Shown here in pieces: positions 448-34,581 of a stretch of 64,000 bases of DNA. The notes beneath the pieces are model-generated. The model had not been told where the DNA came from, did no database searches, and worked only from the letters and a program-made list of their open reading frames with translations. This DNA is from Eledone cirrhosa (taxonomy: Eukaryota): contig OZ024743.1 of assembly GCA_964016885.1 (NCBI GenBank), positions 294,500,001 to 294,564,000 on the forward strand, read 5' to 3'. The position numbers and the translations under genes are program-made. Position 1 is the stretch's first letter; each line of letters begins with the position of its first letter.

Positions 448-2445
448 CATTAATATTTAATTTATTGACTCTGAATGAATGGAATGCTAACTCAACTTTG
501 CTGAGGTTTTAATTGAGAAACTATAAGGCCATGCCAGTATATTGCCATTTCACACACAACGCTGCATTTAATGGACTCAGATCCTAACGTGTGTTTGTAT
601 GTGTTCCATCTCACAGCATTCTGAGTTAAATTCCATCTGGATCGTACGGTCGATACCAATCCAAGTTGATAGATTTTCTGAATTGTCATGACACTAAACG
701 AAATGTCTTGTAATATTTGTTCGGGTGTTTTGCTTTGTGAGTGCAAATTTTGCAGGTGGCTACAAGGATTATAGACTTCGGTCGTTCTGTTTAAAAGCCC
801 TATCCGGCCATTTGGGTGATCTTAGCAGAGTCCGCTTTACTGCAAATAATCATAACTGGTTTCGGTTTGATGTTATTTGCGTTTCTCGCTCTCACCAGCC
901 TCACGTACCCTAAAAGTTAAAGGGTCACAGCCAATCACATTCCCTTCCTAACAAAACCGTAAACGATGGGTATCATTGATAATTGTTTTTATAGCTGTTT
1001 CAATCAAGAGACACTTACCACATTCTATTGTTATCATATATATTTATTTGTTGTTAGACCTATCTAATACGTAATTATCTCTTGACGATTCTCAGTTTTA
1101 CGGTCTATAACATCTAGGTGTTTTACATTCCGGACACATTGTACATACCTTATAGCTAATATTTCAGTTCCATAACCCCATGTACAAAATATGATGGATT
1201 GTCTCCCAATAAAATTTGTATCCGACTCCTTTTTGGTTTAGCCCAATGCTTAAAGATTTTGACAGGCAGAAAAAAATAGAGAGGTCGACAATTTGCAATC
1301 AAGCTGTAGCTAATGATGCAAAGTTATAAACTGTGATTCCGACTACTGCAGATATACTTGGATAGTGATAACATGTATTTATCTTTTGCTAGACATGTCT
1401 CTTTAATGGGAGTTTACTGATCTCTTCGACGGGCATTCAGGGTTCTCTAACAAATCTGAAGGGCATTTTACATCTGAATGGCGCGGATGAGCAATGACAT
1501 TCTCTCTGAGCATCCTAAGTAAGGAAAAATGATTGCTTCTTAGAGACTAATACGATTGAAACGCAGAACGTTGAATATAGCATAGGGAGTTACAATCGCA
1601 ACAACGATAGCACATGGCATAAAGTGATACAATAGATTTGCTTTTGCTAGTTTGAGAGAAACACTAGATTGAAGTGATCTATTTCAAAAACAAATTGCAA
1701 AATGATGCATCTCTCCATAACCGATGCATTACTTAAAATAGGACTAGATAATGGATACTAAGAAAAAGGAAACTATATATTTATAATCTATTCAAAGATG
1801 GGTGGAGCTTTCAGCATTCGTCGAAACAATAGATAAATTTAAATGATATATGATGAAAAGCCTATGAGACACATTTAAATCCGGTGAAACAGCTAAAACA
1901 AACACTTACCTATTATTCCAATATTTGGGCCAGCTATTAGATGCAACGTCTATAACTTTGACCACTGGATCGTCGTCTTCTTTGTGGCATATTCTGAAGA
2001 GGTGATCAGTATGGAATACATGACTAATGTTGTGAGCGCCTCCAATAAATTGACTGTGTATCAATTTTTTATCTTCTTTTGTTTCTTCTACCATTTATTT
2101 TTCTATAATCTTTTTTTCAATACAACTTTCCGCATATAAAGAACCACATTTGTTTTTTGCTATCAACCAGAGTTCTATACATTTTTTTTTATTTTCCCAG
2201 TTTTCACAATTCGTCTAACCTTTACCAACTCTGTTTCTGGTTAAATAATATTTATGGCGATCATTGTCATTGTCCTCATGTTTCAGTATCCAGCTTCATC
2301 CTACTAGCTTCTTTACGTCCTATGATAATCCCAGCACATCATCGAACCAACCCACATGATTATTTTCATAATCTTGTTTTTCATCCAATTTACTCTTTAA
2401 AACCAAACTTAACCATCTGAATAAAAATGATAGTATTATTATTAT

Positions 2446-4764
2446 TGTTCTTTGAGTCTCAGTCATTGATGTTAGTTAACTGGAAAGTTTGTTGAAATGA
2501 ATATAAACCCACTACCTGCAGCCTCAGATATTCAGGACGTATCGGAGGGTTCTTGCTGTTCCCAGCAAGCATGCCTTTTGAAGCGTTCCAAAAAGCGTGA
2601 AGGGGCCAATTTTCTTTAACCATCCCTGGAAACTTTTTGAAATAGTACCTAGTGCGCCTATGACAATCGGGATCACTTTGACTTCATGGCAGTTCCAAGT
2701 CCTTTTTACCTCCCATTTTAAGTCCTGGTATCGGTTAATTTTCTCCCTCTCCTTCTCTTGCACTCTCGTGTCGAATGGGCAGGCCACAACCACAATCAGG
2801 CACGATCTTTTTCTTTGACTACAACCACCAGGTCAGGTCTATTGTGTTCCAGTTTCTTGTCCGTCTGTATCCTAAAATCCCACAGCACCTTCACCTGATC
2901 GTTTTCTATCACCGACTCTGGCCTATGCTCATACCACTTCTCAGAATGTGGTAAATTGTTTACTTTGCATAGGTGCCAGTGGATCACCCTGCCCATCACA
3001 TCATGTCTCCAGCCCTTATAGTGAGTCTGGGCTAGGTGTTTACACTCGGATACAATGTGAGCCAGAGTCTCCTCTCTCTCTCCACAGATACTGCACAGTG
3101 GGCTAGCCTCCTCCTTGTAAATATGGTGTTTCAACCACTTCCTTTTGAGGGCCTGCTCTTGCGCAGCCATTAACATTCCTTCTGTAGCCTTTTTAAGGTC
3201 TCCTCTTTTCAACCAGTTCCATGTCTGTGGATCTCTGAATTCAGTTTACTCAAAGAAGGTACTATGAAGGGATTTTTCCTGAAGGCTGCTCTTTCTCCTT
3301 CTTGTTATTTCCTCCTTGGACATCCCATGGTCTATTGTCCTCTCCTTCAGTACAGTTCTGAGCATTGGCTCCTTACTATCTGTCACGTATTTGTGTAGGT
3401 TGTTTTTCTCCATCTGAACACAGTCCTCTATGCTGATAGGACCTCTTCCACCTTCAGATCCCCTTAAGTAGAATCTATCGACATCATCCCCTTGTGGAAC
3501 ATGTTGTAGATAGTCAATAGCTTCCTAGTCTTCCTATCCATTTCTTTTTGTTCAGCAACATTCCATCTCAGAATTCCCGCACTGTACCTAATAATAGACA
3601 CAGCTCGGGAATTTACTGCACTTATGGCATTCCTACTGTTCAGATGTGACTTTAATACGCTCCTTATTCTCCGAATGTATTCAGTTCTTATCAATTCCTT
3701 CATTTTTTTTGTTCTTGATGTCATCAACCTCCAGAACACCCAAATACTTGTATCCTTCTTCACTGTCAATTTCCTTTATCATCTCAACTGTTGGTACCTG
3801 GATTCCGTTACTTCTGCTCAATTTACCCCTCTTCATCTCACGGACTCCACACTTACTAATACCAAATTGCATACATATATCATTGCTGAAAATACGGACA
3901 GTGTCAACAAGCACATCCAACTCCTTCTCACTCTTCCCGAAGAGCTTAAGATCGTCCATGAAGAGGAGGTGATTGATGGTAAGCTCTCCCTTTCCCAACT
4001 TGTATCCTGCTCTCACTTTTCGCAGTACAATGGTCAGGGGCATCAGGGCAAGGACAAACAACAGGGGACAGACTATCTCCCTGGAAGATACCTCTCTTGA
4101 TCTTCACGCCTCCCAAGAATTCTCCAGCTGATGTTAACTCTGTTTCCCAGGACTTCATACTTTTGCCCAACAACTGTCTGATGTTATCTGCCACTTTGAA
4201 GACCTCTATGCCTTTGGTGATCCAAGAATGAGGCACCACGTCAAATGCCTTTTTGTAGTCTATCCATCCCATGGCAAGACCAGTATGTCTCCTCTTGCAA
4301 TTCCTCATTACCATCTTATCAATAAGTAACTGGTCCTTTGTACCACGTGACTTCTTTCGGCATCCTTTCTGTTCGTCCGGTAACAAGTTGTTTGTGTAGA
4401 GGTGATGGTAGGTTTCCACAGACATAATGCTTGTCAACAGTTTCCACATTACGGCAGACATGTGATAGGTCTATAGTTGGTAACATCATTACCCTTGATT
4501 CGGTCTTACATTATCAGAACTGTGGTACCTTTTGTCAACCACTCTGGCACCTCACCTGACATCAAGCAGTCATTGAACATGGTTGTCAGTTTCAGGTGGA
4601 GGGATGTTATATTTTTAATCCAATACCCCTGCACACCATCTGAGCCTGGTGATTTCCAGTTGGTTAGTTTTTTGGCCTGCCCCTTAAGAGTGTCATCTGT
4701 GATACTCAAATCAGTTTGTTGGTGTGCCTGTTCACTAATCTCCTTCTGTACTGTCTCAATCCAC
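2446..4764 (-). mobile_element. R4/Dong-clade non-LTR retrotransposon, 5'-truncated and frameshifted (Dong copy 1)
   Basis: RT motifs [67 protein letters not shown]; 3' UTR followed by (AAT)n tail at 2434-2445. Confidence 0.9.
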
Positions 4765-4787
4765 ATTATTATTATTGTTATTGTTAT

Positions 4788-6497
4788 TCCTTGAATCTCA
4801 GTCATTGATGTTGGTTAACTGGAAAGTCCGTTGGATTGAATATCAAGCCACTACCTGCAGCCTCAGATATTCAGGACGTATCGGAGGGTTCTTGCTGTTC
4901 CAAGCAAACATGCCTTTTGAAGCGTTCCAAAAAGCGTGAAGGGGCCGATTTTCTTTAACCATCCCTGGAAACTTTTTGAGATAGTCCCCAGTGCGCCTAT
5001 GACAATCGGGATCACTTTGACTTCATGGCAGTTCCAAATCCTTTTCACCTCCCACTTTAGGTCCTGGTATCGGTTAATTTTCTCCCTCTCCTTCTCTTGC
5101 ACTCTCGTGTCGAACGGGCAGGCCACATCCACAATCAGGCACGATCTTTTTTCTTTGTCCACAACCACCAGGTCAGGTCTATTGTGTTCCAGTTTTTTGT
5201 CCGTCTGTATCCTAAAATCCCACAGCACCTTCACCTCATTGTTCTCCATCACCGCCTCTGGCCTATGCTCATACCATTTCTCAGAATGTGGTAGATTGTT
5301 TACTTTGCACAGGTGCCAGTGGATCACCCTGCCCATCACATCGTGTCTCCAGCCCTTATAGTGAGTCTGGGCTAGGTGTTTACACTCGGACACAATGTGA
5401 GCCACAGTCTCCTCTCTCTCTCCACAGATCCTGCACAGTGGGCTAGCCTCCTCCTTGTAGATATGGTGCTTCAACCACTTCGTTTTGAGGGCCTGCTCCT
5501 GCGCAGCCATTAGCATTCCTTCTGTAGCCTTTTTGAGGTCTCCTCTTCTCAACCAGTTCCATGTCTGTGGATCTCTAAATTCAGTTTTCTCAAAGAAGGT
5601 ACTATGAAGGGGTTTTCCGTTAAGGCTGCTCTTCCTCCTTGATGTTATTTCCTCCCTGGACATCCCCTGGCCTACTGTCCCCTCCTTCAGTACAGTTCTG
5701 AGCATTGGCTCCTTACTATAGGTCACGTATTTGTATAGGTTGTTTTTCTCCATCTGAACACAGTCCTCTATGCTGATAAGACCTCTTCCACCCTCAGATC
5801 TCCTTAGGTAGAGTCTATCGACATCACTCCTCTTGTGGAACATGTTGTAGATAGTCAATAGCTTCCTAGTCTTCCTATCCATTTCTTTCTGTTCAGCAAC
5901 ATTCCATCTCAGAATTCCCGCACTGTACCTAATAATAGACACAGCTCGGGAATTTACTGCGCTTATGGCATTTCTGCTGTTCAGATGTGACTTCAATACG
6001 CTCCTTACTCTCCGAATGTATTCAGTTCTTAACAATTCCTTCATTTTTTTGTTCTTTATGCCATCAGCCTCCAGAACGCCCAAATACTTGTATCCTTCCT
6101 CAGAGTCAATTTCCTTTATCATCTCACCTGTTGGTATCTGGATCACGTTACTTCTGCTCAACCTACCCCTCCTCATCACAATGACTCCACATTTACCAAT
6201 ACCAAACTGCATACATATATCACTGCTGAAAATACGGACAGTGTCAACAAGCACATCCAACTCCTTCTCACTTTTCCCGAAGAGCTTAAGATCGTCCATG
6301 AAGAGGAGGTGATTGATGGTAAGCTCTCCCCTTCCCAACTTGTATCCTGCTCTCACTTTTCGCAGCATAATGGTCAAGGGCATCAGGGCAAGGACAAACA
6401 ACAGAGGGGACAGGCTATCTCCCTGGAAGATACCTCTCTTGATCTTCACGCTTCCCAAGGATACTCCAGTTGATGTCAACTCTGTCTCCCAGGACCC

Positions 6498-34499: not shown

Positions 34500-34531
34500 A
34501 TTATTATTATTATTATTATTATTATTAGTAT

Positions 34532-34576
<45 letters not shown>

Positions 34577-34581
34577 TAGTG
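34500..34581 (+). repeat. (ATT)n grading into (AGT)n; right edge of the nest
   Basis: Direct reading of the sequence. Confidence 0.95.

Follow-up and report, generated by a model that had tools for sequence, protein, structure and literature searches.

How does a chain of retrotransposons more than 30 kb long come to be joined by simple ATT repeats? The question is raised by a 64-kb stretch of the 3.0-Gb genome of Eledone cirrhosa (assembly GCA_964016885.1, contig OZ024743.1, positions 294500001–294564000), hereafter the window, in which there is no N. Positions 2435–34526 of the window hold an array of nine pieces, drawn from long interspersed elements (LINEs) of the Dong type and of a type with an apurinic/apyrimidinic-like endonuclease (APE), together with a short interspersed element (SINE). 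From left to right, these are Dong1 and Dong2 (minus strand), A and B (plus), C (minus), and C′, the SINE, D and E (all plus), followed by (ATT)9(AGT)n. Every joint except that between C and C′ bears an ATT tract. We think it probable that retrotransposons inserted here separately and came to be linked by ATT tracts through a short ATTA(T) nick site and through repeats carried by the element RNA. The ATT array itself is real and well supported, the pattern that it exemplifies is genome-wide, and arrays of repeat-targeting LINEs as such are already known.

The anatomy of the array is directly observed (Table 1). An earlier note on this stretch, made from the letters alone, had joined the elements by ATT tracts, and these are present at 2435, 4765, 6499, 12373, 18236, 22800, 28441 and 34500, while the run that it listed at 22613 is a mere 7 nt. 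Neither (ATT)4 nor (AAT)4 occurs outside the array tracts in the whole 64 kb scanned, and the chance background of (ATT)3 outside the array is 0.06–0.4% of 26-nt windows. Elements A, B, E, Dong1 and Dong2 align to copies elsewhere without insertion, and D likewise lacks any insertion but is missing ~340 bp. Consequently, there is no nesting in the window, as the note had claimed; elsewhere, SINEs do lie within B (L028, L031) and within the 5′ untranslated region (UTR) of A (L179). Its strands also hold: the minus strand carries C and the Dong copies with their AAT tails, and the plus strand carries A, B, D, E and the SINE. The note mentioned neither the fragment C′ nor the loss of intact second open reading frames (ORF2), none of which was found by an ORF and domain scan of the window. 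Copies with intact ORF2 occur elsewhere (L050 and L134 among those at ATT), and catalytic motifs are intact in relatives.

The note had named random 5′ flanks of full-length copies elsewhere as the result that would make ATT a mere tail. Flanks were collected with head patterns that left the upstream bases free, excluding only G at the first place. Most of the flanks sampled lie in the first part of contig C1, and the flanks of A, B and Dong heads and of truncated Dong ends, the 3′ flanks of SINEs and the types of 3′ tail were counted by eye. Among the matches listed, ATT lies upstream of 100/100 A heads (of 1719) and 100/100 B heads (of 282); 89 and 90 of these, respectively, have a perfect (ATT)5, and 99 in each set end in ATT. 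The head patterns of elements D and F of the window match only themselves and are uninformative. A scripted test of the first 60 loci with a 3′ motif was passed by 18 of the 20 full-length copies, the two misses being 16-nt mapping offsets with tracts upstream. In the first 40 of 45 A/E-type loci, which were not selected on ATT, all 23 full-length copies have at least six ATT units upstream; a candidate list selected on ATT was left out of the counts as circular. ATT is more than a mere tail.

Further properties of these flanks bear on how they arise. Young A copies are flanked at either end by long tracts, with medians of 16 units at the 5′ end and 11 at the other, and solitary copies likewise have tracts on both sides. 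Full-length A and B joints show one fixed phase, in contrast to the mixed phases of Dong heads. Seven full-length copies have a short 3′ run with unique DNA behind it and a 5′ ATT run of 4–17 units (L007, L012, L029, L046, L056, L161 and L167), and in none of the seven is that DNA duplicated at the 5′ end. L161, for example, has 12 units upstream, one downstream, and an unduplicated unique flank. The truncated copies L153, L154, L168 and L184 lack 5′ ATT yet carry tails of 7–13 units.

The SINE and the truncated LINE copies bear on how much ATT is needed at a site. The SINE 3′ motif has at least 139506 genome matches; among the 100 listed, ATTAT follows in 87 and (ATT)4 in only four. SINE insertions show non-repeat target duplications of 12–16 nt (8 of 58 SINE ends being scorable), and truncated LINE copies show non-repeat duplications of 14–16 nt at ATTA-like sites. 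Because SINE sites are short and about half of the truncated LINEs lack 5′ ATT, strict specificity for long tracts is not established. Thus, the lineage that the note had called (ATT)n-specific does have ATT upstream of its full-length copies, but does not appear to require a long tract for cleavage.

The anatomy, the flanks, the bias in orientation, the copy numbers and the duplications are observed; the strands nicked, the ends of the RNA and the order of events in the following account are what we infer from them. Insertions would be added singly by target-primed reverse transcription, the L1/Tx1-like LINEs and the SINE being primed on the AAT strand and Dong on the ATT strand. The APE enzyme would need only a short ATTA(T) site, aided by pairing with the (AUU)n tail of the RNA. 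If the RNA starts inside the upstream tract, full-length joints would fall in a fixed ATT phase, with a tract on both sides. The fixed phase and the seven unduplicated unique flanks make a short nick site with RNA-carried repeats at both ends the simplest reading, on small numbers. Each insertion would then give a further LINE, SINE or Dong a place to land, and later deletions, template switches and inversions at tracts would produce tractless head-to-head joints, 5′/3′ chimeras and element C.

Parts of this account have precedents. Human L1 and Alu use a TTTT/A nick site that matches the tail, leave duplications of ~15 nt, include a SINE moved in trans, and insert into old tails. On this account, the elements described here resemble them in an AT-rich short nick site matching the tail, a duplication of ~15 nt, a SINE in trans and the reuse of old tails; they differ in the trinucleotide repeat of tail and site, in the fixed phase of full-length 5′ joints, and in chains of tens of kilobases. 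In R2, the presence of upstream target sequence in the RNA goes with the type of 5′ junction. As the junction phase suggests, a similar upstream target may be present in the RNA here. R2 cleavage lies upstream in 28S (PMC3774820).

Several observations weigh against a short nick site with RNA-carried repeats. Of the 37 copies scored as truncated in loci L001–L060, only 15 passed the strict test for ATT or a duplication, four of the misses being mis-mapped full-length or inverted copies, and in L151–L190 the 5′ joint has ATT or a duplication in 8 of 17 truncated copies. Given these low rates, many joints need a second event. At other truncated joints, the neighbour is a truncated Dong or SINE placed head to head with the copy. 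Mobilisation of the SINE by these lineages is suggested by a short likeness, the last ~25 nt of the SINE aligning with the LINE 3′ end, and an older lineage of laxer specificity could instead have been responsible. Finally, the long tracts flanking young A copies also fit a real preference for long tracts.

That preference is the core of the rival explanation that survives best, in which the endonuclease works only on a long (ATT)n that is already in place, and the tracts on either side of an element are halves of a split target. The median of 16 units before full-length A copies and the paired tracts of solitary copies speak for it, as does the description of Kibi, Koshi and crocodilian Tx1 elements as microsatellite-specific (PMC4494074). 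We nevertheless regard it as rather unlikely. It is at odds with the rarity of (ATT)4 at SINE sites, with the truncated copies in non-repeat sites, with the lopsided tracts of L161, and with a phase that is fixed in full-length joints and mixed in Dong.

The partner of these elements in the array is, by its sequence, of the R4/Dong type: it has a single ORF, a reverse transcriptase (RT), a CCHC motif, a restriction-like endonuclease (RLE), and (TAA)n insertion. The Dong 3′ motif has 8486 genome matches. The relatives L092 and L097 have a single ORF of 1141 amino acids with an RVT_1 match (E 6e-23), and the translation of Dong2 has C-terminal CCHC and PD-(D/E)xK motifs; there was no Exo_endo_phos hit. 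The note's view of the Dong copies is thereby borne out. AAT-type tails were found at 45/45 of the Dong 3′ ends listed, (AAT)2 or more lies upstream of 91 of the 100 Dong heads listed, and AAT runs lie upstream of 29 of 38 truncated 5′ ends. A crude descriptor found no ribozyme resembling that of hepatitis delta virus (HDV) in eight heads, including a full-length Dong head, and Rfam returned for the window, whose Dong copies lack heads, only below-gathering microRNA noise driven by microsatellites.

Dong and the APE elements share their niche from opposite strands. Neighbours were scored for 40 of the first 43 A-head rows, three beside already included loci being omitted. A neighbour lies at the 5′ tract of 22 of these 40 heads; 16 are LINEs or SINEs, all on the same strand, and six are Dong, all on the opposite strand. 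When LINE 3′ ends were divided by tail into ATT and TATC types, 13 of 69 ATT-type ends had a Dong end on the opposite strand no more than 500 bp away and one of 69 had one on the same strand, with 0.1 expected, while the TATC-type control gave 0/39. Both the 3′ ends and the head neighbours thus place the sharing that the note had proposed far above chance. The opposite priming strands suggested above would account for the constancy of this orientation. Within the initial 27 Mb of C1, the 110 ends of ATT type or of Dong fall into 71 clusters, nine of which have three or four ends. The head-to-tail arraying that the note had seen is therefore common genome-wide, and the array of the window is long but not exceptional in kind.

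Joints between Dong and the other elements are not all of this form. Truncated Dong ends meet a LINE or SINE head to head in 4 of 38 cases, three with an overlap of 3–6 nt. At L047, L074, L095, L096, L011 and L156, a truncated Dong and a truncated LINE or SINE meet directly by their heads, with no tract at the joint and in some cases with a 3–6-nt overlap. Such joints may reflect deletion of the tract, or two elements priming on both ends of one break. Separately, an exact 16-nt match with a splice-donor-like motif lies 24–40 nt from the start of Dong 5′ UTRs (L065, L066, L072 and L097) and of the B-type head L059. The shuffled maximum is 12 nt; the match occurs in one of 57 LINE heads, and further heads of B and E have weaker forms. 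The two clades may thus have an internal promoter element in common.

A sister lineage, which the note did not mention although one copy (element F) sits in the window, has TATC in place of ATT. Two LINE 3′ motifs have 4118 and 18769 genome matches; in the first 100 rows of a listing of 3′ ends, 56 tails are ATT, 43 are TATC/TA/TC and one is neither. One TATC-lineage head has 568 matches, with TATC upstream in a single phase in 100/100 listed. Several of these heads lie ~5.7 kb apart (for example, C2:33306417, 33312191 and 33317963), a spacing that suggests tandem chains of the TATC lineage, and copy L002 has an intact ORF2. In a quick RT tree (106 proteins past an 850-amino-acid length filter, 102 kept, two rows being short pieces), in which Dong had no role beyond that of a long-branch outgroup, a single clade unites the ATT and TATC copies (100 in the Shimodaira–Hasegawa-like approximate likelihood ratio test), and the TATC copies are the sister group of B (98). 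When the TATC lineage is compared with the ATT lineages, the endonuclease is 59–61% identical, the RT 75–81% and the C-terminal part 67–68%; the corresponding values between ATT lineages are 71%, 78% and 77%. Since the C-terminal part diverges likewise, the faster change is not confined to the endonuclease.

A wider proposal, which we put forward tentatively, would link the two lineages. LINE RNA that begins and ends in AUU might turn 5-nt ATTAT seeds into microsatellites on either side of every full-length insertion, and so build a niche that it, the SINE and Dong would colonise from opposite strands. A nested lineage might then have adopted TATC as both tail and target while its endonuclease changed faster, left the Dong niche and founded chains of its own.

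The TATC lineage also bears on a second rival, passive accumulation, in which insertion is near-random, ATT is a mere tail, and chains survive in gene-poor DNA. The half or so of truncated copies without 5′ ATT would be expected on this explanation, but it is made very improbable by the 200/200 full-length heads listed with ATT upstream, by the fixed orientation of neighbours, and by the TATC lineage, which has its own repeat upstream in 100/100 heads listed and none of whose 39 ends lies near Dong.

A third way in which the array could have been built is by tandem duplication, or by crossing-over between misaligned tracts (unequal crossing-over). Elements A, C and E are 90–92% alike over ORF2, and 5′/3′ chimeras occur at L018, L053 and L168. 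However, A, C and E have different 5′ UTR/ORF1 modules (6535–8637, 21936–22576 and 28468–30771, respectively), and the chimeras, together with the mismatched identities of ORF1 and ORF2, point to an exchange of modules. Adjacent elements of the array come from separate families, with distinct heads and ORF1s, and each resembles copies at other loci more than it does the elements beside it; Dong1 and Dong2 differ in truncation point and age. We consider duplication a highly unlikely origin. Array members are 85–99% identical to relatives elsewhere, Dong2 being the youngest LINE, and this spread suggests that the chain grew over time by separate insertions.

Element C probably involved a further step. 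It abuts C′, a 36-bp 3′ fragment on the plus strand, head to head and without a tract. As flipping 18287–22576 restores the order of tract, element and tract, C is likely to be an inverted block or a twin-primed insertion of read-through RNA. Elsewhere, minus-strand chains at L178 and L180 meet plus-strand fragments in an arrangement resembling C and C′, and an internally inverted (twin-primed) B copy of classic form follows (ATT)14 at L003:3700–7024.

Least probable of all is an assembly artefact joining unrelated repeat copies at microsatellites, for although short-read contigs at the inner joints are only 50–110 nt long, with none spanning, and read depth is low over the right flank, where no bridging piece is listed, the window is free of N, a 2642-nt short-read contig (maybe from the assembly's own sample) runs from the unique left flank through the tract to 2460, ~14 nt past it, raw reads of two other individuals contain joints of the same kinds (Dong–tract–Dong and a tractless joint of Dong and LINE), and strict strand rules over dozens of loci would not come from random joins.

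The affiliation of the APE elements is also suggested by their proteins. The plus-strand LINEs of the window retain APE and RT pieces, and ORF2 of the relatives L050 and L002 contains Exo_endo_phos, RVT_1 and zf-RVT with intact catalytic motifs. ORF1 of A, E and B2 has one CX2CX4HX4C (a CCHC zinc knuckle). The best match among solved structures is human L1 ORF2 (E 1e-57, versus 3e-22 for R2), and in the RT tree the elements are not part of a group of fish sequences, regarded as L1, of which one member has PF02994. Judged on these comparisons, they belong to the L1 group, and membership of Tx1 is likely; no named Tx1 member was found among the relatives from protein searches and cluster look-up. 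Unnamed relatives in public assemblies (P0001–P0042) include one at 78% identity and others at 37–45%.

Against this background, the elements work like Kibi and Koshi. Tx1 families include Kibi on (TC)n, Koshi on (TTC)n, crocodilian elements on (TTCC/TTTC)n, and Tx1-1_ACar on the telomeric repeat (PMC4494074; PMC3812793; PMC10088271). The likeness lies in two-ORF APE LINEs flanked by one simple repeat, with related families on different repeats; the differences are the ATT and TATC targets and a SINE on the same site. Dong, of the R4 clade, is known at TAA repeats in insects, molluscs, cnidarians and ostracods (PMC3812793, PMC7998251), and the silkmoth element has an HDV-like ribozyme (PMC3774820). 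The Dong elements described here agree in having a single ORF with RT, CCHC and RLE, and AAT on both sides, but their tracts are also used by an APE lineage on the other strand, and the crude descriptor found no such ribozyme. TRAS and SART share the telomeric repeat of Bombyx in opposite orientations and are arrayed (PMC10088271). They too are two LINE families arrayed on one repeat in opposite orientations; both, however, are R1-clade APE elements at telomeres, whereas APE and RLE elements are combined here at interstitial tracts along the chromosome-size contigs C1, C2 and C4. Recently active Dong-R4 and L1-Tx1 have been reported in octopods (PMC13282606). The available portions of the literature, including PMC13282606, PMC8967140 and PMC4758252, describe neither a Tx1 that targets ATT or TATC nor chains of Tx1 with Dong, and Repbase Reports may yet hold such elements.

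APE LINEs may choose and change their targets through the endonuclease or through pairing of tail and target. For a comparison of the two, this genome offers close relatives with intact ORFs on ATT and on TATC, thousands of junctions, and more than 139000 SINE sites that read out preference, as well as target sharing between APE and RLE elements away from telomeres or ribosomal DNA. If the proposed mechanism is true, LINEs would create microsatellites and long, harmless chains. The genome also provides a setting for the exchange of ORF1 and UTR modules. ATT and TATC markers, and assemblies, would be confounded by chains in such genomes.

Table 1. Features of the array and of related copies in the window (window coordinates).
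Feature	Position	Strand	Evidence or remark
(ATT)4, AAT tail of Dong1, array left end	2435..2446	+	repeat scan; short-read contig
Dong1, 5′-truncated R4/Dong-type LINE, RT+CCHC+RLE	2448..4764	-	93% identity to young copy
(ATT)4 (4765-4776) and GTT/ATT variant units, Dong2 tail	4765..4786	+	
Dong2, 5′-truncated, frame open to stop, CCHC and PD-(D/E)xK motifs	4787..6498	-	99% to other copies
(ATT)12, between Dong2 5′ end and A 5′ end	6499..6534	+	
Element A, full-length two-ORF APE LINE, frames broken in array	6535..12372	+	head: 1719 genome matches
(ATT)15	12373..12417	+	
Element B, full-length APE LINE, broken frames	12418..18235	+	73% to A across ORF2
(ATT)17	18236..18286	+	
Element C, 5′ truncation within ORF1, own ORF1 type, short ATT tail on own strand	18287..22576	-	ORF2 90% to A/E
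C′, last 36 bp of an A/E-type element, abutting C head to head	22577..22612	+	
7-nt ATT run	22613..22619	+	
SINE, ~185 bp, 3′ end resembling LINE 3′ end	22620..22799	+	at least 139506 matching 3′ ends genome-wide
(ATT)10	22800..22829	+	
Element D, APE LINE that retains its 5′ end, ~340 bp deleted internally	22830..28440	+	
(ATT)9	28441..28467	+	
Element E, full-length APE LINE	28468..34499	+	92% DNA to A over ORF2; ORF1 protein ~50%
(ATT)9 (34500-34526) then (AGT)n, array right end	34500..34581	+	
Outside array: solitary truncated copy, 13-14-nt non-repeat target duplication starting in TTATTA	45969..46423	+	
Outside array: element F, sister lineage (~67% DNA), flanked by (TATC)n tracts	49036..54735	+	

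The SINE may have a tRNA-derived head with A and B boxes and a likeness to the Nin/Deu domain; ARAGORN gave 0 hits and Rfam no hit. A 45-bp piece of a SINE head occurs in tandem arrays at L008:26–4516 (~100 units), L001:4521–5226 and L004:7319–7670, and three SINE copies stand in tandem at 47708–48344 of the window. Also in the window are open frames of 150–210 amino acids at 39024–40435 and 44752–45216, with no convincing Pfam family, and large inverted repeats and foldback-like elements bounded by (AT)n at 36801–38752, 55101–56088 and 62270–63531 (for example, 36934–38050 and 62270–62662).

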